IMG/VR virus record: IMGVR_UViG_3300001528_000360
Coordinates: 88,430 to 152,429 of that record
Source of the DNA: a virus
Taxonomy: Duplodnaviria > Caudoviricetes
Strand: one strand, 5' to 3'
Length of the DNA stretch: 64,000 bases
Below are positions 8,549 to 62,179 of this stretch, piece by piece. Position 1 is the first letter of the stretch. The number at the start of each line of letters is the position of its first letter. Under the pieces are notes generated by a model. It worked only from the letters and a program-made list of their open reading frames with translations, had not been told where the DNA came from and made no database searches. The position numbers and the translations under genes were made by a program.

Positions 8549-11378
8549 TTAAAGTTTCTCTTTATAAAATGGATCTAAGAAGGATTTACCACTCTTCTTA
8601 AATGTTAACGGTGAAGTTAACTGTCTTCCTAAGAATTGAGAGGACAAACCAATCAAAACAGATTCATGTTTTTCTAATGCAGAACTAATTGTTAACATTT
8701 GTGTGTCAGCAATTGCATCATAACGCTTAAAATCGGGTCTCTCCAAAACATCATCAATAGAACGAATCAGAGGAGCAAGCATTACTTCAGCATGAACACT
8801 CTGTACATTAATTTTAGATTCAATTAACAAATCAAGAAATACTTGTGCAAGTTCATGAATATTAGTAATTCCGAGTTCTGCGCGTTTTTCTTTGGTATCG
8901 AGTAAACCCATTATCTGATACAGGGGTCTTGTTAATTCTGCATTTTCAATTTGTAATAAGAATAATTTTCCATCATCAGGAATATCATTAAATTTAATTT
9001 CTGTAAAATTCTCTTTCTGTTTCTTATTCTTTTTAATTAATTCTTTCAATTCAGGACTGATATACATTTCTTTTCCAGTTTTCTCAGTAATTTCGAAAAT
9101 TTCACCAGTCTTATTATTCTTAACACTAAAGAGAGTTAAGAATTCATTTAAATCACCTTCGTCAAGAGCACTAAGTGTAACAATATTATCGTTGATAATT
9201 AGCAATGAGTAATCTTCAATATCATAGTCTCCTTCAATGTTAATACTAATCTCATTAGCATTAAGATTAAAGAACTTATAGAAATTTTCATCAAATTCAA
9301 TAGTTTCTGAATTTGTTGTTAGCAAATGTTTAGAAGATAGAACTGACTGTGATAAAGGATTTGTTATTACCGCACCAGCGTATGAACCAATCCCAACGCC
9401 ACCACAATTAGTATGAAATAGTATTGGACCATAGCAATCTTTACAAATACCTTTATGAGATGCACATGTTATTGGAGATTTAACAAGAATCTTTTTACCA
9501 ATAACGAATCTATCATTTTCTGTTAAAACACTATAATTTCTCTGATTAGGAAGACGATACATTCTTCCAATTAATCTCTTGAAGTGTTCTTCAGTTTTAA
9601 TCTCAAATTCAATAGGATGTACTGATCTGCAACTTTTTTCATCATCTCTTAACTTCATATTGGATACGAGCAACATACACTTACGCGCGAAGTAGCCCGA
9701 TTTCTGAAAATGTTAACATAAGAACGCTACTTCCTATGCAAACTACTATTGTAGTTTCTTTATGTTTCCATAAAGCACAGACTATATCTTCAACCTATAT
9801 TAAGGTTGCCTCTCATTTCCATTGTCAATCACTTACAATGTACGGTTTGTCACCTAGTCGTTGAACCTTACTTATTATAAATAAGTCTTGGCTGCTGATT
9901 GTCTACAGCATTACTTGTTTAGAGTTTCCAGCAATTAAAGAGGTTATTTTTCGAACACATTGCTGTGAACGTGAGCTTTACCAAACCCATTACGTTTTTA
10001 TTAAAGATAAGAGATTTTCTTCCCGTTTATGTTCATATAGAGTCGTTACTTCTATACCGTCATATTTAATGACTGCTCTAATTTACATTAGAGACCAGAC
10101 TATATCTTCATCTTAATATAAAGATGTCTTCCATTTCCATCCACTTGGATGTACGTGCTAAGCACTAGTCGTTGAACCTTACTCTATATATAAGAGTCTT
10201 GGCTGCTGATTATCTTAATAAAGATTTTCCAGCATTTAAAAAGAATTCACTATAATATCACTATTATAGTGGGCTTAAAGTTAACCAATGGCGTCAATAT
10301 AATATCCAGTTACAGTTGACAATCCACCAACTACAAGATTTGAATTAATAGGAATAGGAATAGTTGCACCTTCAAGAGAAGGTTTCATTCCCATATTAAT
10401 ACTGAACTCCGAAAGCTGTTTCGTTACTACTTTATATTTCTATAAAGACTAGACTATATCATCACCCTTATATTCTGTTACCAAATATAAGGAGCCTACC
10501 ATTTCCACATTTAAGTGTACTCTACTTGGTTATTCCTATAAGTATTTCTCTTATAGTATCCTTTCGATAGTCGTTGAACCTTACTTATTATAAATAAGTC
10601 TTGGCTGCTGATTGTCTTTGGCTTTACCCATTAAGAGTTCCCAGCAATTAAGTAGGTTTTTCCAATGTATTACTACATCTCGGGACAAAATTTTTATTCT
10701 ATCCTTAATTCCAGTTCCGGATCTCAGCATAGGCTGAAGAACGTTTTCTTCTTGAGATAAGATTTGAATTTCTTCTCTCATTAATTTATGAAGTTGATCT
10801 TCAATTTCACTAGGTTGCATAGCAGGATCAAAATGAGTTCTAATGATTTCATTAAATCTTGGATTCTTATTAGCAACATCCATAAAGGATTCAATTGACA
10901 TAGAATTACCAAGAATAATATTAAACTCAGTAGAGATCTTACTAAGATTGAAAATCAAATCATGAATGATCTTATTTAATTTCTTATTAGAAATTTTATT
11001 TCTATAAGGAATAATAATTTTATTATCAATATAATTCTTAATATACTTAGATGAAATAGTATAGCAATCTACAAGGAATGTTTTATCAAGATGATCTACA
11101 GAGTCAAGAACGATAAGAGGTTCCCAGAAAATTAAGTTCGTTAAGAAATGTCTTAATTGTAATGAAAGAATCTCTGTATCAGATTCATGGAATTTGAAAT
11201 GAACCATACATTCACGAAGTTCTTTATGCTCAAATCCTGCTCTGAGATAATCAAAAATTGATTCAATAAAAATTTTGTATTCCTTTGGATCTTCCATCTT
11301 TTTCTCAATAATGTACATATTATCGTACAAGAAACTTATAATGTCTTGTACTTCCTTAGGGAGTTGCTCATTTGGCAT
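8549..11378 (-). CDS. rpoC: Phage multisubunit RNA polymerase, beta' C-terminal-half subunit (4 exons, ~669 aa)
   Basis: Exons 11378-10701, 10421-10284, 10023-9985, 9703-8549 join in frame; they restore YIDAIG|GRKSL..MG|KSGYFARK (bridge helix) plus SPITC..GICKDCYG (Zn) and SQSVLSSKH (trigger loop). Confidence 0.85.
9704..9984 (-). mobile_element. Group I intron, ORF-less (beta' gene, intron 3)
   Basis: P AATTGCTGGAAA, Q AATCAGCAG, R GTTCAACGACTA, S AAGATATAGTC; 5' exon ends U, intron ends G. Confidence 0.9.
10024..10283 (-). mobile_element. Group I intron, ORF-less (beta' gene, intron 2)
   Basis: P/Q/R/S core present; GGT|GGA junction restores the frame. Confidence 0.9.
10422..10700 (-). 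mobile_element. Group I intron, ORF-less (beta' gene, intron 1)
   Basis: P/Q/R/S core; P1 GGAU/GUCC; junction IKD|KQL. Confidence 0.88.
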
Positions 11379-11485: not shown

Positions 11486-11576
11486 TGGCGGACGCTCAGG
11501 GATTCAAACCCTGGATACCTTATCAGGGTATTACAGTTTTCAAGACTGTCGCCTTCGATCACTCGGCCAAACGTCC
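11486..11576 (-). tRNA. tRNA-Ser(UGA) with encoded CCA
   Basis: Acceptor stem GGACGTT/AGCGTCC, anticodon arm ACAGT-CTTGAAA-ACTGT, long variable arm, 3' GCCA. Confidence 0.92.
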
Positions 11577-23540: not shown

Positions 23541-24275
23541 TTATAAGCCTTCAAAAATATCTTCATCTTTAGATGTACTAAAATTTGAAGTTGTTTTTTC
23601 TTTAGATGATGATGTCCAATCAATATTCTTTTTAATCTGTGAATTATACACTTTTCTATTTGAAAATAGATCCAGATTCTTTTCATGATGATTAGTAAAT
23701 GCTAAATAATAATTTACTAATGACTGTGAATATTCGAAGATATCTATTTTCTCTAATGTGTAAACTAAGTTCTCAAATTCCTCTATAGATAAAGGAATAA
23801 CATTTTCTATTTTATTAATGAAGATATGAACACCTTCATATGAAGTTTCATTTTCATCATATATAACAGAAGGCTTTATCATAATCGCTTGTCCTATTCT
23901 AGGAATAGTAACTTGCTCTGTATATTTTTTAGCCATATCTTCATATACAATAACTTTGTTATTTTGTAATGCAAAAATATTTTGTTCATAAATATTTTTT
24001 AATACTTTCTTCATGGTCTTTACTACACTACCGAGGTTTCCCATACCAATTAAGAAAGATTTTGTCATATCGAATGATTGATCATTTGGTTTTACTAACT
24101 CTAAGGTTACATAACCATTAAAGTTTAAATTAATATATTTTTTATCTCCTATAGTAAATTCATTATGTGTTGCTATAGTCTCCTCTTTTAATTTTACTTG
24201 TATTTTTAAAGCTAAATTAGGATATCTTAAGATAGTCCTAGTGATCTTCTCAGGAAGTTTATTTTCCCCAGTCAA
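23541..24275 (-). CDS. Hypothetical protein
   Basis: 244-aa ORF, TTG start; early promoter motif at 24340-24349. Confidence 0.65.
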   Translation of the reverse strand: MTGENKLPEKITRTILRYPNLALKIQVKLKEETIATHNEFTIGDKKYINLNFNGYVTLELVKPNDQSFDMTKSFLIGMGNLGSVVKTMKKVLKNIYEQNIFALQNNKVIVYEDMAKKYTEQVTIPRIGQAIMIKPSVIYDENETSYEGVHIFINKIENVIPLSIEEFENLVYTLEKIDIFEYSQSLVNYYLAFTNHHEKNLDLFSNRKVYNSQIKKNIDWTSSSKEKTTSNFSTSKDEDIFEGL

Positions 24276-24415: not shown

Positions 24416-27199
24416 TTATTCAATTCCTTCTGAATCTATATTAATCTCAATTGTATATACATCATCATCTTTAAGTTTTCGATTTACATCGAAAGTTTTA
24501 TTAAGTTCTGTACAATGTAAATTGAAATTATAATAATCTTCAATAGAATCAAAAGTAGGCGTAATGTTTAGATAGTCTTTCTTATTTCCATAGAAAGATT
24601 CAATATCTTTATCGAAATTAAATTTAAACCCTTCAGGTTCATGAGAACCATCAAAATACAATCCATCTGTTTTACAGAATGGTGTCATGATGGCACTTGT
24701 ACCAGGGTCTGATGTCAGTAATGTTCACACAAGGTCGTTACTCTTATGTAGTTCTCTTATGAACTTCTCTATATCATCTATAGAGCTCAGACTATATCTT
24801 CATCCTTTATTAAGGAGCCCTCCATTTCCATCTACTTAGATGTACGTGCTAAGCACTAGTCGTTGAACCTTCATAATCAAAAACTGCTATCTGATCATCA
24901 TCTGAATAAATTATATTAGAAGACTTAATTTTCTTTTCATCTATTTTAGTACAGGAAATTTCTGCTATATTATTTTCTTTAAGAAACTCAGAAAGTTTCT
25001 TAATAGCTTTATGAAATTTTCTATTCCCTTTAGATGTAAAGAAGAATTTTGTACCTTCAGGAACTCTTATATCAGGAGCTTTTAATTTATATTCAAATAT
25101 AGCTGTAAGTCTAAATATTTCATTTTCACAGCTATTGGGTTTAGGATGATCATTAAAATCATATTCATAAGCAGTTGTAATAATTCCTATATCTGTATCT
25201 TTTGTTGAATACCGATATAACATATATATTCTCCTTTATGTTGATTATGCTTGGTTGCTGATTATCTTATAAAAGACTTTCCAGCAATTAAGAGAGATTT
25301 GTATAATGTATTACTACATTATGCGGCTAATAATCTACCGCAGACATTAATATCTAAACGGCCTAAATAACTTGGATCTAACATATATCTTCATATAGAA
25401 TCGTTAGTTCTATACCGTTCAATAAAGAACAGCTCTATATTTCTATAGAGATGAGACTATATCTTCAACTTAGTTAAGTTGCTCTCCATTTCCATCTACT
25501 TAGATGTACATTTAGTCGTTGAACTTTTCAATCTGCATTAATAAGAAATTCACCATCCTCATTATAGTTAGAGATAACATAAATAGTATCAGAATTTTCC
25601 TGGCTTTCACCAATATATCCTAAACTAATTGTACTAATCGGTGTAAGTGCTTTCTTATCGTCTACTTTAACATCAAGTAACATAGGTAGGTCACCATATT
25701 TTTCAATAAGGTCCTCCATGTTCTTAACAAAAGTACTTGCCATTACAATTTTCATTTTTTTCTTCCTCCTATATATAATACAAATTGATTTAGCTGCTGA
25801 TTGTCTACAGCATTACCTGTTTAGAGATTCCAGCAATTAAGAGAGTTACGTAGCTTATTTTCAAACCACGATATTTAGTACTAATGTTATTATCATTATT
25901 ATTTCCTAAGGAATTCGGTCCTTTAAATGTAATTTTGAGCTTTCCAAATATGTCAAGGTCATTTACACTATCATCATACCTTAATAAGCCTGACTTATGC
26001 AACTGAGATAGTATAAGATCACCTTGGAACTTAAATATTTCTTCAACATTTTTAAGTGTTGCCTTTGATCCCATTCCAATAATTCTATTTACTCTATCAC
26101 TAAACGTCTTCGTGAGAAGCGATGCTATATACTCATTACATCTAAGACGTTTATTTTCCAAACTCATATTATCTTTCTTTCTTAGATCAGAGAAATTCTG
26201 AACCAACCATCTTACAATTGAATAAATATTCTTTTTATGAATAGGATGTAATTTAAGAATACGTTTTGTAGTATCATCAATCATACGATCAAAGAATACC
26301 ATAGTATTCAATCCTTTTTCATATTGAGAATTTTTATTAATCGTTCCGATTGCTCCTAATTCTTCAATCCAGAAATCTTTATTTTCTAAGTTATCAATAG
26401 ACATTCGATTTGTCATTAATGTTAACAACATGAATGCCATAGATTTTACATACGTATATTTATAAAAGAAATGCTTATTTACTTCTAAGAATAACTTTGA
26501 GTTTACACTAAAGTAAATAAACTCTTCTGTATTTTCAGGACTTTCAACAAATCTAATAATTTTATCAACTGAATAATATTTTAAAGTTTTCTTTAGTCCA
26601 ATCTTTGCTAAATAAAACAAAAGAATATCTACATTCTTACGGAACACAAGAATTGTATACGTAGGAGCTGTAAATGATTCTCCTGTTGTAGATTTTGCTG
26701 TATACTGTTTTACCTTAATATTAATCGGCATCATAGATTTTAATACAATAGCCGACTTTGTTGTATAAGATGCAGAGTCAACGATCTGATATAATAAGAA
26801 ATATTTATTTCCTTTAATCTTATAATACAGATTATCATCAGGAACAGGAATCAATAATTTCTTTGTGATATTTTTAGATTCATCATTGCATTCCAGATGA
26901 AATTTCAGACGAAGTTCTGCATATCTTGAATCCTGAAGATACATATATCTTGTAGGATCATTCTTCTTTGTTTTCGTTCTTGATTTGGCATCAATATACT
27001 CACTCGTATTAATTTCAGCTTCATTGGTTACATAATCATATCCAAGGAATTTTACATACTCAAGAACTTCAAGAGACTTACAACAATCAACTATATAATT
27101 AACCAAGTCATCGTCGTACTCTCGATTAATTAGAGGGTAGTTAAATCGTTCTTCATTAGGATTTTTATATTCTTTGATGAATTTATACATACGATGCAT
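24416..27199 (-). CDS. rpoB: Phage RNA polymerase beta N-terminal-half subunit (3 exons, ~559 aa)
   Basis: Exons 27199-25865, 25381-25337, 24715-24416 give KGPNSLG..KYRG|LDPSYLGRLDINVCG|TSDPGTS, equivalent to the beta GPGGL..RDVHxSHYGRIC..TPEG region. Confidence 0.8.
24716..25336 (-). mobile_element. Group I intron with a non-endonuclease ORF in P6
   Basis: P at ~25280, Q ~25254, R ~24857, S ~24790; P1 GCGGU/GCCGC; ends G. Confidence 0.88.
24849..25223 (-). CDS. Intron-encoded hypothetical protein (no homing endonuclease motif)
   Basis: AAGGAG RBS; 124 aa; FFFTSKGNRKF and IIYSDDDQIA motifs; no HNH, GIY-YIG or LAGLIDADG. Confidence 0.75.
   Translation of the reverse strand: MLYRYSTKDTDIGIITTAYEYDFNDHPKPNSCENEIFRLTAIFEYKLKAPDIRVPEGTKFFFTSKGNRKFHKAIKKLSEFLKENNIAEISCTKIDEKKIKSSNIIYSDDDQIAVFDYEGSTTSA
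25382..25864 (-). mobile_element. Group I intron with a small non-endonuclease ORF in P6
   Basis: P ~25829, Q ~25794, R ~25513, S ~25456; P1 CGUGGU/GCUACG. Confidence 0.88.
25528..25755 (-). CDS. Intron-encoded small hypothetical protein
   Basis: AGGAGG RBS; 75 aa; DLIEKYGDLP resembles small phage hypothetical proteins. Confidence 0.75.
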   Translation of the reverse strand: MKIVMASTFVKNMEDLIEKYGDLPMLLDVKVDDKKALTPISTISLGYIGESQENSDTIYVISNYNEDGEFLINAD

Positions 27200-43039: not shown

Positions 43040-43270
43040 ATGGAAATATTGAATAATTATGAACTTGAGTTTATTCTTGAAATGTCAAAAGAAAAACAAT
43101 CAATTCAATATGTATTTACACAAATTTGCAATAATCATAATGATCTTTCACAATCAATTAAGATACCAGAAGATACACACAATGAGCATATTCTAGCATT
43201 AACAGATTCTGAATATGAAAATTATCTGTATTATTTACATGAAATTATAATTCTATTACACACATTATGA
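43040..43270 (+). CDS. Hypothetical protein
   Basis: 76-aa ORF, AAGGAG RBS. Confidence 0.55.
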   Translation: MEILNNYELEFILEMSKEKQSIQYVFTQICNNHNDLSQSIKIPEDTHNEHILALTDSEYENYLYYLHEIIILLHTL

Positions 43271-43362
43271 AGATATGGGTTATATCCCATATCTTCATAT
43301 TTTTAATCTAAAATATAAATATATATTATTTATATAGATTCTAAAAGAATAAAATATATTTT

Positions 43363-44241
43363 ATGAAAGGAGCGATAATTATTAGTAGTATTGATCTAAA
43401 GGCTTTTGAAAAAGGTCAAGTGTGGAAAATGGACGGAGAATCTTGGACACCAGAACTAAGAAACTCTGGAATTACTGTTGGTGATAGACCTGTAATTATC
43501 TATCGAACAGTTGAAATTCGTAGTGGATTTGTAACAGTTATTCCTACTAGTATGAATCCAGTTAAAAAGAATGGAGTAAGATTAAAATTAGAAGAAAATA
43601 AACAAGGAATTGCTCTTGTACAGGAAATTCGACCTGTACCAATTAGTAAACTAACAACATTCTTAGGAACTCTAAATAAAAGTAAGCTTGAAGAAATTGA
43701 TAATGCTCTTAAAATTTATCTTGGACTTGAAGAAGATCCTGAACTTGAAAAGAAGGTCTTTTATGTAACCGGTCCTTCAAGACCATATTTTAATAGTAGG
43801 GAGTGTCCAGCACCTACAGTTTATCATGCTAAACCTATTGAAAAAGAAGAAATTATTAATGATAAACCTGCAGAAATTGAAAAACCTAAGAAACCTTCAA
43901 AATCTAAAAATAAACTTTCTCATCTTACACAAGAAGAAAAAGAATATGTAAAAAGTCATAAAATTAAAGAAATTTCTAATTACTTACATATCTCTACATC
44001 CACAGCATATCGTTATAGAAGAGCTCTTGGCACCAATGTTTCTAAAACTGAAAAGCCTGATTACTCTGATAAAATTTATAAAAATTTCTACAAGAAAAAT
44101 CTAAATATTATCAAAGAACCAGAAAAAAGACTTTTCTTAAAACTTAATCCTGAAAAGCTTTCTAAATTTACAAATCTGCCAATTGAAACTATTAATGAAT
44201 TTAGAGAACGTTTTTCTAAAGAATTAAATATTAATCTATAA
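43363..44241 (+). CDS. PemK/MazF-like endoribonuclease domain with a C-terminal HTH-containing extension
   Basis: GQVW..G..RPVII..VTVIPTS..LVQEIRPV..KL..LGTL..LEEIDNALKIYLGL; later KEISNYLHISTSTAYRYR. Confidence 0.75.
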   Translation: MKGAIIISSIDLKAFEKGQVWKMDGESWTPELRNSGITVGDRPVIIYRTVEIRSGFVTVIPTSMNPVKKNGVRLKLEENKQGIALVQEIRPVPISKLTTFLGTLNKSKLEEIDNALKIYLGLEEDPELEKKVFYVTGPSRPYFNSRECPAPTVYHAKPIEKEEIINDKPAEIEKPKKPSKSKNKLSHLTQEEKEYVKSHKIKEISNYLHISTSTAYRYRRALGTNVSKTEKPDYSDKIYKNFYKKNLNIIKEPEKRLFLKLNPEKLSKFTNLPIETINEFRERFSKELNINL

Positions 44242-44396
44242 GGGGACATATATAATATGCAACCAGATTTTATTGCTATTCCATATATCGGATAACAATC
44301 AATTAAGGAGCCTGAAATTTTATTCAGGCTTCTTTTTTTATCTTCTTTTTGAGATATATATTATATTCATAGAATAGAAGTAAAGGGTGATAATTA

Positions 44397-45065
44397 ATGG
44401 CATCTAAGTTTAACCCAAAAAGTGATCATACTATTTATAAGAATAGCCTTGGTCAAGAAGTACCAAGTGCTACTACAGTATTAAAGATTTTAAATAAGCC
44501 TCAGTTGGTTAAATGGGCAAATTATTTAGGTTTTAAAAGTCTTGATGTGGATTCAGTATTAAATGAATCTGCAGCATTAGGAACTTTAGTTCATGATTTA
44601 ATTAATTCTATTCTTTCTAAATATTTAATTATTTATATTCCTGATGGTATTATTCCTTCAGATGTTGTATTTTCGTATATCAATAGATTTAAGATTTGGT
44701 TAAAAACGAATAATGTAGAACCTATCTTATTAGAAAAATCTATAACTTCTGATAAAGTTGGCGGAACTATTGACTTCTATGGAAAAATCAATGGTAAATT
44801 AACTTTATTAGATTTTAAGACATCTAAAAAGATTAGATTAAGTATGTTTTTCCAACTTGCTATTTATGTTATCTTACTAGAAGAATTAGGATATGAAATA
44901 GAACAGGTAGGAATATTATTAGTCAATCCTAAGTATAAAGATGAAAAGTATATAGCAAGAAAAGATTTTGAAAAATATGTTACATTTGCTAGAAGACTAA
45001 TTGATCTTTTTCATTCTTATTATAACCTCAACAATGAAGATAAATGGGAAGAATCTATAATATAA
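44397..45065 (+). CDS. PD-(D/E)XK (RecB/Cas4-like) nuclease
   Basis: PSATTVL, GTLVH, E..GTID..LDFKTS, QLAIY. Confidence 0.85.
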   Translation: MASKFNPKSDHTIYKNSLGQEVPSATTVLKILNKPQLVKWANYLGFKSLDVDSVLNESAALGTLVHDLINSILSKYLIIYIPDGIIPSDVVFSYINRFKIWLKTNNVEPILLEKSITSDKVGGTIDFYGKINGKLTLLDFKTSKKIRLSMFFQLAIYVILLEELGYEIEQVGILLVNPKYKDEKYIARKDFEKYVTFARRLIDLFHSYYNLNNEDKWEESII

Positions 45066-45075
45066 TAGGAGTGAA

Positions 45076-46248
45076 ATGCCTATGGAAAAAACATATATTG
45101 GAGCAGTAATATCAGATATTCACTTTGGGGCTATGCCTGCACAGAGATTATTTGATGAGCTTGATAAAGGATTCTTAAAATATTTAAAAAGTTTAAAAAT
45201 ATTAGATTTTGTAGTAATTGATGGTGACTTATTTGATAATAAGTTAAACCTTAATTCAGAGCATGTTAAATATGCTTTTATATTTCTACGAAAATTAATG
45301 GAAATTTGTGTTTCTCATAATACAAAACTTCGTATTATTAAAGGAACAGAATTTCATGATAATAAACAACTTGATGTATTAAAGTTCTTCTCTAATTTCA
45401 ATGTAGATTTCAAGATATTTGAAACTGTTGATAATGAAGAATTATTTCCGAATTTTAATGTCTTATATATTCCTGAAGAGTATATGACTGACAAGAAGGA
45501 ATATTATAAAGATTACTTTAATAAAGAGTATGATATGATATTTGGTCATGGCTTAATGAATGAAGTTGCTTTTGTTGCTAAGAATCAAGAATCTGAAGTA
45601 ACTATGCAAAAAGCTCCTATATTTAAAAGTGAAGAACTTTTAAATATTTGTAAAGGACCAATATTCTTTGGTCATATTCATAAATCTCAATGTATTAAAG
45701 ACTCTATATACTATGTAGGATCTTATAGTAGATGGGTATATGGAGAAGAAGAACCAAAAGGATTTATGATGTGTGGTTATACACCACATACTGGAAAATT
45801 TGAAGTAGAATTTATTGAAAATAAATTAGCACCTGAATATAATACAATGATAATTGATTATAATAGTGCTTTTTATAGAGATGATGCAGATCATCAATTA
45901 GATTATATTATCAGGATGGTCAATAATCTTAAGGTGGATAGAATAAGAATTATATTCAATATTCCTGAAGATTATGAAAATCCTATATTATTAACGAATT
46001 TGATTAATGATGTTTTTAGTAAGTATAAAAATATTAAAATTATTATCAATAATAATAGTAAAGAGATGAAAAAGAAACGAGAAATGGAAGAAAAGATAAA
46101 AACTTTACTTACAAAATATGATTTTATATTTAATAAAGCTATTTCTCCAGAAGAGAAATTATCAAGATTTATTAAATTGAAATATAATAAAGATATATCT
46201 ATAGAGAATATGAGAAATTATCTATATCAAAAGATTAATTTTGAATAA
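45076..46248 (+). CDS. sbcD: SbcD/Mre11-like nuclease
   Basis: SDIH, GDLFD, GTEFHD, GH, GHIH, YVGS motifs. Confidence 0.88.
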   Translation: MPMEKTYIGAVISDIHFGAMPAQRLFDELDKGFLKYLKSLKILDFVVIDGDLFDNKLNLNSEHVKYAFIFLRKLMEICVSHNTKLRIIKGTEFHDNKQLDVLKFFSNFNVDFKIFETVDNEELFPNFNVLYIPEEYMTDKKEYYKDYFNKEYDMIFGHGLMNEVAFVAKNQESEVTMQKAPIFKSEELLNICKGPIFFGHIHKSQCIKDSIYYVGSYSRWVYGEEEPKGFMMCGYTPHTGKFEVEFIENKLAPEYNTMIIDYNSAFYRDDADHQLDYIIRMVNNLKVDRIRIIFNIPEDYENPILLTNLINDVFSKYKNIKIIINNNSKEMKKKREMEEKIKTLLTKYDFIFNKAISPEEKLSRFIKLKYNKDISIENMRNYLYQKINFE

Positions 46249-47432: not shown

Positions 47433-49347
47433 ATGCTCTTCAAGACAAATCAACGAGAAAAATATGTCGATCAAACAAAGAAAATTCCAATTAAATTTGA
47501 CATCAGTATGTTGAATATGTTTATTGGTTTCATATTTAAGAAATCTGTTCAGATTACAAGAAAATCATTAATGAATATGAAACGATTATTTGCTGTAATT
47601 GATGAATCTATTTATGAAAATAGTGATCAGTTACAAGCAAGAATTGAATTTATTAATAAAGCTCTTGAAGCTAGATTAGATAAGGGATTTGAAAATGATG
47701 AAATGATTATCAATTATTGTAAATCAGATGTTTATGATAAAGACAATCAAGACATTATTAATAATATTCCTATATACACTAGGATTAATTATGAGGAAAT
47801 TAAATATATAAATAAATGTATTGAGGATAGACTTCAGTATTATTATTTATATTATTATAAGGATGCCATTTATGAAACCATAGAAAGACTTGACAGTGGT
47901 GATTATAAGTCTTTCTATGAGATCAATAATAAAATGGCTAGTATTTGCACTGATTTAATTAATAGAATTCGAAATAGTAAATCAGTCGATACGGAAGATC
48001 AATTTTGTTTAAGTGATGAAAACTTTGACTCTAATGTATTAGATATTGTAGAAAAACTTCAGAATCCATCTCGTATTATACGAACAGGTATTCAGAAATT
48101 AAATGAGATTCTTTCACCTGGGTTAATGAGCAGTAGATTATACATGTTTCTCGGATTGCCAGGTGGTTGGAAATCTGGTATGCTTCTTAAAATTATTAGA
48201 GATACGAAAATGTATAATCGAGATATTCAACCAAAGAAACCAGGTAAGCATCCATGTGCATTATTAATAACTATGGAGAATGAAGTTGCAGAAACAGTTG
48301 AAAGATTATTCAATATGTCTGTTTCAAATTCTAATATCAGAGATTATACTCCAAAGCAAGTATTAAAAATGATTAAAGACTCAGGAGAATTAACAGTAAC
48401 TAATGATAATGGTATTGATATTGTCATTAGATATTATCCTAATAGATCTATTGATACTAGTGATTTATATACTATTATTGATGATCTTGCAGATGATGGT
48501 AAAGAAGTCATATTATTAGCATTAGACTATGTTAAAAGAATTCGTCCTGCAGAAAAAGGAAAAGATGAAAAAGAAGAATTAAAAAATATTACTAATGAAT
48601 TAAAATCATTAGCTATTGATTATGATATACCAGTTGTATCAGCGCATTAAATAAGGTGCCATAATATAGTGATATATTATGAAAACTTTCCTAATTGCTG
48701 GAACCTCTCACATGAGACAATCAGCAGCCAAGACTCTTTAATGAGTAAGGTTCAACGACTAGTGCTTAGCACGTACATCTAAGTAGATGGAAATGGAAAG
48801 CAACCTTTCAATAATATTATTAAAAAGTTGAAGATATAGTCTCATCTCTAATATAAAAATTAGAGCAGTTCATAATGGAACGCATATAGAGTAACGACCT
48901 ATATGGAAGATAATGCAATTAAATAGATCTGGTGCGTCAGTAGTTGATGCTGCAATGCAAGCAAATAAAGAAGATCTTGGTCGTTTCTTAGGAAGATCTA
49001 ACGTGGGCAGTGCCTGGGAAGTGATAGAGAACACAGATGTTGCAATCATTATTAACGTAGAAAAGAAACGACAAACTGGTCAATACTATTTGACATTTAA
49101 ACGTGTAAAAATTAGATATAAAGATCTATCAGAAATCAGTTATTTTAATCATCCGTTTAATCCTAATAATAAGATGCAACTTGAAGATGATCTTTTACTT
49201 GATCATTCTTTATCTGAAGATAGTTTAGTATCTGATTTTGATGCTGTGGATTTATTAAATAAGAAAGGTAAACGTACTGCAACAGAAAGAGAAACAGTTG
49301 CTGATGAAGATGTCTTCTTATTTAATAATGCAATTAATAAAAATTAA
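47433..49347 (+). CDS. dnaB: DnaB-like replicative helicase (2 exons, ~548 aa)
   Basis: GLPGGWKS, TMEN, LDYV; exons 47433-48647 and 48916-49347 restore PVVSAH|QLNRS. Confidence 0.9.
48648..48915 (+). mobile_element. Group I intron, ORF-less (dnaB)
   Basis: AATTGCTGGAA, AATCAGCAG, GTTCAACGACTA, AAGATATAGTC; U|...G junctions. Confidence 0.92.
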
Positions 49348-56520: not shown

Positions 56521-59500
56521 TTGGAAGACAACGTACAGAAGTTCATAGATGATAAGATAGAACACATCGAAAGTGATATAAAGAAAATTCAGGTTAAGCC
56601 TGGAATGTATATCGCAGAAATAGGTGCTAATGGTGCATTGCATCTCTGTAAAGAATTAATTAATAATGCAATTGATGAATGTATTAATAAAAATTCTCCT
56701 GCTGATACAATTGATGTATTTCTAGATGAAGGAGAAAATGAAATTACAGTTTCAGACAACGGGCGAGGAATTCCATTTGAAAATTTAATTATTGTATGTA
56801 CTACATTACAATCAGGAAGTAAATTTACACGAGAAGGTGCAGGATCTTCGAGTGCAGGCGAAAACGGTAAACTTCAATGCTGTTGTAAAACTCTCTTAAT
56901 TGCTGGAAAATCTATAATAGATAATCAGCAGCCAAGACTCTATATAGAGTAAGGTTCAACGACTAGTCATTATGACGTACATTCAAGTGAATGGAAATGG
57001 AGAGCAACTTTTATAAGTTGAAGATATAGTCTGATCTCTATAGAAATATAGAGCAGTTCATAAGAGAACGACACAAGAGTAACGATCTTGTGTGAACGAG
57101 AATGGTCGGACTCACAGCAGTAAATAGTCTATCTCACAAATTTGAAATTATATCTTATAGATATGGTGAAAAAGGGAAAGTATCATTTACTGAAGGTGAA
57201 TTAATTGATCAATCAGTTACTAAGATTAAGAATAAAGATAAGCATGGTTCAACTTTTATTATGCAACCTTCTAGGGAGTATATGGGTCAAGACTGTGATA
57301 TTAGTTCAGATAATCTTATTAGCTGGATTGAAAAAATTGTATATTTATTACCTTCTAATATTAAGTTAAATCTTAGTATTAAGAAGAAAGGTAAAGAATC
57401 TTTAGTTAACAAAAAGTATAGTAATAAAAGAGGACTCTATGACTTAGTAAATAAGATGTGTCAAAGACCGCTTTTAGATCCAATATCTTTTATTCAAACA
57501 ATGAGAACGAAAGAAAAAGTTCATGATAGATTGATTGATAGATTTATTGGACTTGAAGTGGCTTTTACATATAATTCTAATAGCGTAGAGTTTGAAAGTG
57601 AATCTTTTTGTAATTTCGTTAATACCTTCGATGGTTAAAACTAAGCCCACTATAATAGTGATATTATAGTGAATTCTTCTTAAATGCTGGAAAATCTATA
57701 ATAGATAATCAGCAGCCAAGACTCTTATATAGAGTAAGGTTCAACGACTAGTCATTATGACGTACATTCAAGTGAATGGAAATGGAAGACATCTTTATAT
57801 TAAGATGAAGATATAGTCTGGTCTCTAATGTAAATTAGAGCAGTTCTTAAGTGAACGATATGAGATTAACGAACTCATATGAACATTAACGGGTGTTCAT
57901 GTAGATGCTGTTAAAACAGGTATTCTACAGTATTTAACGAAACAAGCAAAAGATTCTTTATCTGAAAGAGAAGCAAAGAAACTTGATATTACTTTTAGTG
58001 ATGCATCTCAAGGATTATTCTTAGCTGTTTATTTAAGCACTGATTATAATCCTCAGTTTGCGTCACAGATTAAATCTAAGATGTCTAGTAATGAGTTTTT
58101 CAAACCATTACGTGAAATGACATATAGAGCATTAACAGAATATTTTAATAAGAATCCTAAAGATCTTAAGAAGATTATTGATCGAGTAAAAACAAATGCA
58201 AAAGCTCGTATTGAATCAACTAAAGTTCGTAATTCTGTTATTCGTGGTGAAACCACTAATTTTGAAGAACATCTAATGGAAAACTTTATTCCTGCAAATA
58301 ATCGTGGAAGAAATGATTATAGAGAACTCATCATAATCGAGGGTCGCAGTGCACGAGGTTCCGCTGAAACAGGCAGATTTGATCGTGACACACAGGCAAT
58401 TTTTAGTATTAGAGGAGTTCCATTAAATGCATTTGGTTTAAACATTGATAAGGTTCTTCAGAATACTGAATTTAATAATTTAATTAAAATATTGGGATGT
58501 AATTGCGGCAGTCGTTTTGATATGTCTAAGTTAAAATATAATAAGATTATATTGATGGCTGACGCGGACAGTGATAAAGTCTTGTCACTTAACCTCCTTA
58601 ATTGCTGGAAAATCCTTAGAGCCTAAAGTAATAAAATAATTCTTTAGGATTGGATAATCAGCAGCTAATTATTCGATTTTGTTAAGAAATAAAATATAAA
58701 AGTTGGTGATAGAATAAAATGAGATTAGAAAAAATTATATTTATCAATGGAAATAAAACAACTTATAAGGTTACTTCTGATGGGAAAGTGTTTAATTATA
58801 AAACAAATAAATATCTTTCACCATCATACAATCATAAAGGCTATAAAATGGTTGTATTATATGTTGATGGTGAGCCAATAACAAGAACTATTCATAAATT
58901 AGTAGCTTTAGCTTTTATACCAAATCCAGATAATTTACCTGTTGTAAATCATATTAATGGTGTTAAGACAGATAATAATTATACTAATTTAGAATGGTGT
59001 ACATATCAATACAATACTAGACATGCTTGGAAAACCGGACTAACAAAAGCTTTACGAGGATCAATTAATGGACATTCAAAATATAATGATGATCAAATTA
59101 TCAAAGTATGTGAAATGTTAGCTGATAATAAACCTCTTAAAGAAATAAAAAAAGAAACCGGTGTAAAAGGTGATACAATTACCAAAATATTATATCACAA
59201 TCAATGGCCAGATATAAGTTGTAAATATAAATTTGATAAAGATTATTATAAAAGTTTATTAAAATCTGTAGATGCTGATCTTGAGCGTAAAATAGAAAAT
59301 TGTTTATTATCTGGTATTCTTAAAGAAAAAGATATAAAAAAGAAATTAAACATTCCAGATAATAAATCAATACATTCAGCATATAAAAGATTAAAATCTA
59401 AGCACAAATTAACAAAATCGAATAAAAGTTCAACGACTATCGAAAACGATGATCTCTATACAATAGAGATTCATTAAGTGAGTAGATTACACTCAAGTGA

Positions 59501-60451
59501 GTGGAAATGGGAGGCAACCTTCTTAAATATTTAAGAAGGTTGAAGATATAGTCTAAACTATATAGAAATATATAGCAGTTCTTAAATGAACGGTATAAGA
59601 GTAACGATCTTATATGAATATATTTGGGATATAATATCACATCCTTATTATGTGCATTCTTTATGACCCATTTACCTGAGATTGTGAAGGATGGGAGACT
59701 ATATAAATCTGTATCTCCATTATATCGTATTAAGAGTAAATATAAAGAGTTTATTCTTAATAAGAAAGAGTATGTTGAAATTTTTGAAAGACAGGTTAGA
59801 GATAACTTATCCGTCATGAATCCTTCTACTAAGAAGATGTATACAGATACTGAACTTCAACATGTTCTTATGGTTAATAGAAATTATCTTGAAGAATTGA
59901 TTAGATTATCTAATCGTGTAGTAATTAATCCGACTGTTCTTGAATATATCTTAATTCATCGTAAGGAAAAGAATTTCTATAAAGAATTTAGAAAAGAATT
60001 TCCTGAATTAATAATAGATGATGATAATGTCTTAACTGGTATTTATGAAGGACGTTATCAGATTCTTATTATGGATAAAATTTTCGAGAAAAGAATCAGT
60101 CAATTAGAAGAATTTATTAATGATGAAAATCGTCATATGTATTTTAATGTCTTTGAAAAATCTCCTAATGGAAATATTGATAAAGGGGTAATGTCTTTAG
60201 GACAATTTTTGACTTTAGCTCAAAAATATCAACCTATTATAAAGACTCGTTATAAGGGAATCGGTGAGTTGAACCCTAAAGATTTAAGAGATAATACTCT
60301 TGATCCTAGACATCGTATTTTAATTAGGTTGACTATGAGTGATTTAGAGAGAGATTTAGAGAAGTTTAATATTTTACACGGTGATGATTCATCTGAAAGA
60401 AGACTTCTTATGGAGCACTTTAAGATTGATCGTGATGACCTCGACAATTAA
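56521..60451 (+). CDS. gyrB: Type IIA topoisomerase/gyrase subunit B (4 exons, ~795 aa)
   Basis: PGMYI, ELINNAIDE, DNGRGIP, GENG|VG, DG|GVH, EGRSA, ADADSD|G, RYKGIGE; exons 56521-56868, 57105-57635, 57892-58575, 59627-60451. Confidence 0.93.
56869..57104 (+). mobile_element. Group I intron, ORF-less (gyrB intron 1)
   Basis: P/Q/R/S core; in-frame junction. Confidence 0.9.
57636..57891 (+). mobile_element. Group I intron, ORF-less (gyrB intron 2)
   Basis: P/Q/R/S core; GGT|GGT junction. Confidence 0.9.
58576..59626 (+). mobile_element. Group I intron with HNH gene (gyrB intron 3)
   Basis: P ~58600, Q ~58656, R ~59428, S ~59543; splits the TOPRIM DxDxD|G motif. Confidence 0.9.
58719..59477 (+). 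CDS. Intron-encoded HNH homing endonuclease
   Basis: IHKLVALAFIPNP..VNHINGVKTDN..NLEWCT. Confidence 0.92.
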   Translation: MRLEKIIFINGNKTTYKVTSDGKVFNYKTNKYLSPSYNHKGYKMVVLYVDGEPITRTIHKLVALAFIPNPDNLPVVNHINGVKTDNNYTNLEWCTYQYNTRHAWKTGLTKALRGSINGHSKYNDDQIIKVCEMLADNKPLKEIKKETGVKGDTITKILYHNQWPDISCKYKFDKDYYKSLLKSVDADLERKIENCLLSGILKEKDIKKKLNIPDNKSIHSAYKRLKSKHKLTKSNKSSTTIENDDLYTIEIH

Positions 60452-61225: not shown

Positions 61226-62179
61226 ATGGAAACTACTGGAAAGATTAAGCTCTTTAGCGATTCTGATCTTGATGGCATCAGCTGTGGAATTCTTGCCAAG
61301 TTTGTTTTTGGTGAGGAACGTGTTGATACGATGTTTTGTACTCCGAAGGATATTAATCAGAGACTAATGTCTTTTATTGAAAAGGAAGAGTACAATAAAT
61401 ATGATAAGGTCTTTATTACTGATCTTGTTATTAAGCCTGAAACGGCTGCAAAGATTGATAGCATTCCTGGCTTTAAGTTTAAGCTCTTTGATCATCATAA
61501 GTCTAATTATACTAATAGTAAGTATACTTGGGTTACTGTTAGTGAAAATTTTGTAGGACGTAAAACTTGTGGAACAGAACTTTTCTATAATCATCTTCTT
61601 GAATACTATATTGAAGTTCGTAATGATTATATTGAAAAGTATGTTGAGTATGTTCGTCTTTGGGATACATGGGAATGGCCTTCTGCCGGTGCAGATGGTA
61701 TTTATGCAAAGAAGCTTAATACTCTTCTTTCTATGTATAGCAATACAAAGTATATGAACAGTATTATTATTCCTCTTGAGAATAATTCTACCACTTTCAT
61801 CAGTGATAGTGATGAAGAGATTCTTAAGGTAGAGGAAAATCGTAAGAATCGTTACATTAAGCAGAAGTCCAGAAATATTCGTGTAATGGAAGTAAGTGGA
61901 CATAAGCTTGGTTTCGTATTTGCAGAAAATTATATTTCTGAACTTTGTAATTACATGCTTAAGAATATTGAGGGTGTTGAAATTGCAGCAGCTATCAATG
62001 CTGATGCCCATGTTGTTTCTCTTAGAACAACGGAAGCTACTGGTATTGATGTGTCTGAATTTGCAAAGACATTTACTCCTCAGGGTGGTGGACATCCTCT
62101 TAGTGCAGGCTTTGTATTTAATACAGAGTATGAAACTAAGTTTGTACAGGATATCTTCCAGACCTATTCTAAGGAATAA
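61226..62179 (+). CDS. DHH-family phosphoesterase (NrnB-like)
   Basis: DLDG, ITD, DHH, CGT, GGGHPLSAG motifs. Confidence 0.9.
   Translation: METTGKIKLFSDSDLDGISCGILAKFVFGEERVDTMFCTPKDINQRLMSFIEKEEYNKYDKVFITDLVIKPETAAKIDSIPGFKFKLFDHHKSNYTNSKYTWVTVSENFVGRKTCGTELFYNHLLEYYIEVRNDYIEKYVEYVRLWDTWEWPSAGADGIYAKKLNTLLSMYSNTKYMNSIIIPLENNSTTFISDSDEEILKVEENRKNRYIKQKSRNIRVMEVSGHKLGFVFAENYISELCNYMLKNIEGVEIAAAINADAHVVSLRTTEATGIDVSEFAKTFTPQGGGHPLSAGFVFNTEYETKFVQDIFQTYSKE

Follow-up and report, generated by a model that had tools for sequence, protein, structure and literature searches.

Does a near-identical intron at matching Gly-Gly codon pairs in two unrelated genes of one phage record a recent jump to a new site? 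The question is raised by a stretch of 64,000 nucleotides (the window), which is the last 64 kb of the 152,429-bp IMG/VR contig IMGVR_UViG_3300001528_000360 (here G000; 29.7% GC, estimated to be 62% complete). The two group I introns concerned are the second intron of the RNA polymerase beta' gene and the second intron of gyrB, and neither carries an open reading frame (ORF). A preliminary description of this DNA read the pair as a recent ectopic movement of an endonuclease-free intron, directed by its guide sequence, or as whole-intron conversion. Our analysis points, on balance, to recent recombination or gene conversion inside a recombining intron family as the probable source of the near-identity. 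The two introns are as follows, the bar marking the splice junction.

10024..10283, minus strand: i15, beta' intron 2, 260 nt, ORF-less group I intron, splitting ...YYIDAIG|GRKSL... between two Gly codons
57636..57891, plus strand: i25, gyrB intron 2, 256 nt, ORF-less group I intron, splitting ...NTFDG|GVHVD... between two Gly codons

Aligned pairwise, i15 (as the reverse complement of 10024-10283) and i25 (57636-57891, plus strand) are identical in 235 columns out of 263 (89.4%; 90% across 255 nt by blastn), with maximal exact matches of 37, 18, 29, 27 and 69 nt. The copies lie 47,352 bp apart on opposite strands. Both fully cover positions 1-253 of the Rfam model RF00028, scoring 101.6 bits (i15) and 100.3 bits (i25) where the gathering score is 50, and neither contains an open frame of more than 30 codons (the longest stop-free stretch is 29-30 codons). 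The preliminary description had the coordinates of these near-identical, ORF-less introns exactly right. We also find both of the identical tracts it quoted, the host genes it named (beta' and gyrB, by Pfam and tblastn) and the TGGT|GG (Gly-Gly) context of both introns.

The boundaries of i15 are ATTGGT|TAAC...AAACG|GGAAGA, and in both introns an in-frame TAA stands directly after ...TGGT while the end, ...AACG, is followed by GG. The last intron base is G in each, the 5' exons end in U, and a G of the guide lies opposite that U. The interrupted Gly-Gly motif is conserved in both proteins; past TGGT|GG, the exons flanking i15 and i25 have no sequence in common. P1 is very short in both copies, consisting of three exon pairs (GGU with GCC) and one intron pair, and the T that both 5' exons share at position -4 faces a C and is not paired with the guide. 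It is important to note that P1 prediction is ambiguous with guides this short, and that the 5' splice sites of the other introns discussed below were placed partly by eye. P6 is a short hairpin in both introns, with no homing endonuclease. Two extra hairpins (P7.1/P7.2), of the kind that marks the phage-type subgroup IA, are predicted to fold between the 5' strand of P7 and P3' in both copies and show compensatory changes, so that the two introns may belong to that subgroup. Judged from sequence and predicted fold, i15 and i25 thus appear to be functional-looking, endonuclease-free group I introns.

The pair belongs to a large family. An iterated nhmmer search returned 32 segments, corresponding to ∼27 related introns in G000, of which 14 lie in the window rather than the 15 introns described previously. 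Within this contig i15 and i25 are the most similar pair, at the head of a continuum (0.885, then 0.87, 0.85 and 0.85). Because the copies are mosaics, their relationships were taken from pairwise, module-wise and nearest-neighbour statistics in place of a single tree. The parts of the mosaic that matter most here, together with the intron that shares one of them, are listed below.

10222..10277, minus strand: 5' scaffold common to i15 and i25 (guide GCC, P2 hairpin, P3 5' strand), in exact runs of 37 and 18 nt; the i25 tract is 57642-57697
10072..10140, minus strand: 69-nt identical run (P3' strand, P8, P7', P9.0 hairpin), equal to i25 57776-57844
57685..57786, plus strand: segment of i25 (P4-P6 domain, P7, P7.1/P7.2 hairpins; i25 positions 50-151) equal to gyrB intron 1, in runs of 41 and 61 nt with one 1-nt indel
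56869..57104, plus strand: i24, gyrB intron 1, 236 nt, ORF-less, 5' exon AACGGT|, guide GCTGTT; 531 nt upstream of i25

Two blocks are exclusive to the i15/i25 pair: guide-P2-P3, identical at 45 of 46 positions, and P3'-P8-P7'-P9.0, identical at all 67. Since these blocks hold both strands of P3, the predicted fold suggests that the 5' scaffold and the 69-nt tract are structurally coupled and would have to co-vary for folding. Between them, i25 departs from i15 throughout 57685-57786 wherever i15 and i24 disagree. The triplet i15/i25/i24 has 78 informative sites falling in 15 runs (permutation p < 1e-5), such that exact tracts matching different paralogues alternate and are clustered beyond chance. 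Other parts of both introns match further copies: the 3' hairpin of i25 equals that of i06 (G000 ∼65838-66062, outside the window) over 27 nt, the P7.1/P7.2 hairpins of i15 equal those of i23 (window ∼48659-48905) over 37 nt and of i17 (window ∼24721-25323) over 33 nt, and the final 16 nt of i15 equal those of i01 (G000 ∼23644-23871). Entire hairpins are swapped, and all six of the six stem differences between i15 and i25 keep their base pairs. A copy or conversion of the whole intron, as had been proposed, does not fit i25, a mosaic whose 102-nt middle is that of gyrB intron 1 bar one indel and whose 3' hairpin is that of i06.

Scans of IMG/VR with intron-core patterns identified a complete 247-kb relative, G001, which is collinear with G000 at ∼57-84% protein identity over aligned segments and carries ∼15 introns of the same family. 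Megablast against cultured phages gave no match for the beta' region, and for the gyrB region a match limited to 66 nt of intron core, in AR9/PBS1. G001 has introns at only ∼7 of the 27 intron sites of G000, and the partners in the seven same-site pairs stand no better than 3rd to 40th in each other's similarity ranking. The nearest neighbour of an intron is instead found in the same genome for 24 of the 27 introns of G000 (17.1 expected) and for 14 of the 15 in G001 (5.1 expected), so that same-genome copies are closer than same-site copies in the relative, the pattern of concerted evolution. G001 also has a 90% pair of its own, in unrelated genes and with a 76-nt exact run. That introns resemble their genome-mates over their positional counterparts is the signature of exchange among copies.

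We next consider the occupancy of the two Gly-Gly (GG) sites in related phages. Both are empty in G001, where gyrB is one open frame of 792 aa and the beta' site reads TTA GGA|GGC; these empty sites end in AAU and GGA, which neither pair with GCC nor form a U.G pair. Two relatives from metagenomes, L289 (a 218-kb contig) and L290, likewise lack an intron at the gyrB site. The beta' site is occupied in L293, L292 (which stops 8 nt inside the intron) and P0005; in a large protein collection the beta' homologues P0005, P0006 and P0016 end right after ...IDA[IL]G, while others read through. L293, a contig of 20.6 kb, carries an ORF-less intron of 272 nt exactly at this site, 75% identical to i15 and 77% to i25. 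At the gyrB site, L295, L296 and L297 carry an intron with a NUMOD4+HNH_3 endonuclease gene (L295 5048-5770, L297 1021-1758), and the GyrB homologues P0034 and P0037 end after ...DG. Over the parts available, these gyrB-site introns are ∼73-78% (L295) and 61% (L297) identical to i25. G000 contains no close homologue of the L295/L297 HNH genes, its best match, at 35-37% identity, being the HNH of gyrB intron 3. A third candidate for an occupied gyrB site, L298 (ENA k141_658573), was rejected as a palindromic assembly artefact in which gyrB runs, at the GG site, into its own reverse complement.

The guide GCC(C), the P2 hairpin and P3 are common to all GG-site introns, which agree here at 39-42 of 46-47 positions; other family members reach at most 0.72 in a comparable 40-nt P1-P2 module, a slightly different segment. 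Because these introns share guide, P2 and P3 across the clade, a single old lineage of introns resides at the beta' and gyrB GG sites, and its passage from one site to the other predates this genome. Occupancy in relatives, which the preliminary description proposed to check, is variable: both sites are empty in G001, and both are occupied elsewhere in the clade. i15 and i25 are far closer to each other than either is to the same-site introns of other phages (L293 75%, L295 ∼73-78%, L297 61%), the opposite of what the preliminary description named as a refutation. No external intron among those compared exceeds ∼77% identity to i15 or i25, and exact scans for the pair-specific tracts were negative, in IMG/VR for P8 and in JGI metagenome contigs for P2. 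Sequence has passed recently between the beta' and gyrB loci inside this genome. The claim of a recent ectopic movement survives in part: a very recent common source within the genome is supported (89% overall, with the two exclusive blocks near-perfect), while the sites are not new, being occupied in relatives by the same guide-P2-P3 lineage.

The reading we favour can be set out as follows. One intron lineage would have occupied the two TGGT|GG sites of beta' and gyrB within a clade of AR9-like jumbo phages. In this genome, i15 and i25 would have been made near-identical by a recent DNA-level exchange between intron copies, through homologous recombination or gene conversion for which the conserved ribozyme core served as homology. 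This exchange would be part of a genome-wide shuffling of hairpin modules among the ∼27 paralogous introns, in which gyrB intron 1 was either the donor or the recipient of the self-contained P4-P6/P7.1-P7.2 block of i25. The recent event would be a homogenisation or re-seeding, and the between-site move an old one. Since gene order is collinear with that of G001, such an exchange left no rearrangement. We observe directly the mosaic tracts, the clustering by genome, the variable occupancy, the shared guide lineage and the intact frames after intron removal; the recombination mechanism, the direction of transfer and any prior occupancy of the recipient site are matters of inference.

Several observations weigh against this reading. 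G001, the closest complete relative, has no intron at either site, and a recent insertion into an empty site fits the data equally well; we found no genome close enough to show the 'unconverted' state. The same-site comparators have only 60-76% protein identity, and so date the exchange poorly. As to the direction of transfer, the 5' scaffold leans towards the gyrB-site type by only ∼2 nt; a transfer from beta' to gyrB, inferred from L293 alone, was dropped once occupied gyrB sites had been found. G000 is, moreover, a metagenome assembly, in which assembler switching between intron repeats of 40-70 nt is possible. We therefore do not regard the case as clear proof of an intron jump to a new gene. 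We consider it possible but doubtful that an endonuclease-free group I intron truly moved, guide included, between the two Gly-Gly sites, and did so most recently within this genome and into an empty site. Were it true, group I introns, long postulated to transpose to new sites, would have been caught doing so in nature and in protein-coding genes, with a donor, a recipient, empty alleles and an HNH-bearing ancestor at hand for testing.

How might an intron have entered an empty site recently? One route is de novo insertion at the DNA level, in which a break at an empty GG site, made for example by a phage HNH endonuclease or during replication, is repaired from the intron at the other GG site through TGGT/GG microhomology, template switching among copies producing the mosaic in a single event. 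The empty sites of G001, and for gyrB also those of L289 and L290, fit this route, as do the at least six HNH ORFs in sister introns, and a review (PMC3984707) names illegitimate recombination, following endonuclease cleavage at ectopic sites, as a proposed route. The flanks are identical on both sides (T at -4, GG at +1 and +2), beyond what a 3-nt guide needs, but the GG after the site is forced by the Gly codon and TGGT| ends ∼5 of the 27 family sites (read by eye). Since the same lineage occupies both sites in other relatives, an empty recipient need not be assumed; nor does G000 encode an endonuclease specific for GG sites, its best match to the HNH of L295 being 35% identical. We consider this insertion unlikely. 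Guide-directed transposition by reverse splicing, with the intron RNA inserting after the GGU of the other mRNA, followed by cDNA synthesis and genomic recombination, would make good use of the GGU at the end of both 5' exons, which pairs with the common guide GCC. It would also suit the absence of exon co-conversion and the inability of the empty G001 sites to pair with that guide. Moreover, the 5' 43 nt are identical except for a single clustered difference at the P10-guide position, where, read from the alignment, each version pairs 3 nt with its own 3' exon. The 'same guide' of the preliminary description is real in that GCC is common to both copies, but only three exon bases pair with it, an equivocal match to the 4-6 nt expected for reverse-splicing transposition, and a 3-bp guide would suit hundreds of sites. 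Because 5' exons in the family end more often in ...GGT| than in any other sequence (∼11 of 27 copies, partly read by eye), the shared TGGT|GG context is weak evidence for guide targeting. No PF00078 reverse transcriptase match is found in G000 (62% complete) or in the complete G001, though a host enzyme is possible; the search for this enzyme that had been suggested thus does not favour reverse splicing. Finally, reverse splicing leaves unexplained the mosaic tracts, which themselves attest to active DNA-level exchange. We regard this route as decidedly improbable.

Two further explanations were considered. Reads mis-threaded through repeated intron cores could have made or inflated the identical tracts, a concern in a metagenome contig with ∼27 repeats and common tracts of 40-70 nt, and one given substance by the palindromic L298, a related public contig. 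Against such an artefact, both genes agree in exon order, and the contig in gene order, with a complete genome of independent origin, a read of normal length would tie the first ∼60 nt of each intron to unique exon sequence, the same pattern occurs in the independently assembled G001, and all swapped hairpins remain base-paired; we would give it very little credence. Alternatively, each site might have been filled separately by homing from other phages carrying near-identical introns. The occupancy of both sites does vary across the clade and the gyrB-site intron has an HNH gene in relatives, but the external introns are at most ∼77% identical to either copy, the pair-specific tracts lack exact matches in the collections searched, and both copies hold modules typical of G000, such as the short P5 and AAATGCTGG. 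Independent homing of this kind seems to us highly improbable.

Recombination between introns is already known in phages. Bryk and Belfort reportedly described, in Nature in 1990, domain shuffling in phage T4, whose td, nrdB and nrdD/sunY group I introns recombine with one another. There too the partners are related introns that lie in different genes of a single phage, and crossing over in the conserved core yields functional chimeric ribozymes, although the T4 crossovers, which came from laboratory work, removed the DNA separating the introns. The exchange in G000 is by contrast non-reciprocal and natural, with gene order intact relative to G001, and involves ∼27 copies and the guide itself. 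Staphylococcus phage Twort is said, from work by Landthaler and Shub (1999, 2002), to have three introns in orf142 and two in nrdE. It resembles G000 in holding several related IA2-type introns, most of them ORF-less and some encoding a nicking HNH endonuclease in P6, but has far fewer copies. We know of no report that two sites in unrelated genes of Twort carry near-identical guides, or that its introns share exact mosaic tracts. What is distinctive here is exchange across unrelated genes that includes the guide, together with occupancy data for both sites.

The similarity of the Twort introns is said to 'suggest common origins' (PMC4853749). Among giant phages, the Jug gut phages have a mean of 18.5 group I introns per genome (PMC12880540), and AR9/PBS1 has introns in its RNA polymerase genes. 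These phages are like G000 in combining many short group I introns and HNH genes that split essential genes such as terL, polymerases and RNA polymerase. The sections consulted of PMC12880540 cover counts and splicing support rather than relationships between copies or exchange between sites, and G000 has only ∼30% protein identity to AR9. The ribosomal DNA cases that are cited for reverse splicing (PMC3984707) likewise involve related introns at heterologous sites sharing a short guide-matching sequence; the G000 sites differ in lying in phage protein-coding genes, with active DNA-level exchange and no encoded reverse transcriptase.

The routes by which group I introns reach new sites are still unsettled, and the AR9-like phage clade offers a dense natural record of them: ∼27 copies in G000 and 15 in a relative, many sites variable in occupancy, and some phages with an HNH-carrying version. 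The sequence patterns above show that DNA-level exchange of modules is frequent enough to erase site-specific ancestry. A recent jump can therefore not be read from the near-identity of two introns alone, and similar claims based on near-identical introns call for caution.

Both host genes contain three introns, whose remaining parts are as follows.

8549..11378, minus strand: split beta' gene, 669 aa spliced in silico; exons 10701-11378, 10284-10421, 9985-10023 and 8549-9703
10422..10700, minus strand: i16, beta' intron 1, 279 nt; site empty in G001
9985..10023, minus strand: micro-exon of 39 nt (GRKSLIFNKNVMG) between beta' introns 2 and 3
9704..9984, minus strand: i14, beta' intron 3, 281 nt; site also occupied in G001
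56521..60451, plus strand: split gyrB gene, 795 aa spliced in silico; exons 56521-56868, 57105-57635, 57892-58575 and 59627-60451
58576..59626, plus strand: i26, gyrB intron 3, 1051 nt, with a NUMOD4+HNH_3 endonuclease ORF at 58719-59477 in P6 (Pfam)

Removal of the introns in silico restores the frames and yields beta' and GyrB without stops, and all exon junctions are gap-free relative to uninterrupted homologues (P0014 for beta', the GyrB of G001 for GyrB). The beta' is of the AR9/PBS1 type (29% identity by tblastn). The gyrB exons match HATPase_c, DNA_gyraseB, Toprim and GyrB_C (Pfam), and the DNA_gyraseB profile is broken into 28-60 and 61-171, the break at 60|61 coinciding exactly with i25. 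For annotation, the consequence is that beta' and gyrB read as fragments unless the introns are taken out.

Elsewhere in the family, 6 of the 27 introns of G000 carry HNH genes in P6 and 2 of the 27 carry other small ORFs. The latter, which do not look like HNH genes, lie in P6 of the introns at 24721-25323 and 25387-25849 (minus strand) and encode 124 aa (24849-25223) and ∼75 aa. Three introns, i02, i11 and i16 (G000 44007-44278 and 83963-84222; window 10422-10700), lack the usual 3' terminal hairpins and have long P7-P3' inserts, forming a distinct structural subtype inside the family. In G001 (L275-L287), the introns h01, h03, h10 and h15 at four sites have one common P2 hairpin (e.g. 61747-61984, 100269-101140) and near-identical guides (GCTC or GCCC) after GGGT| or GAGT|, the same pattern of one scaffold at several sites as in i15/i25. 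In the terminase-like region, introns occupy three sites in G000 (43242-46239) and two in G001 (98461-101897), only one of them common, and one of the G001 intron sites is contiguous in G000, which shows fast turnover of intron positions inside a single gene. The beta' gene of G001 has two introns ∼9 nt apart (GAATCTGGT), for the second of which an in-frame 3' splice site after G could not be placed. Just upstream of the beta' gene of G000, at 11489-11576 on the minus strand, is a tRNA gene of 88 nt (Rfam, 54.4 bits).

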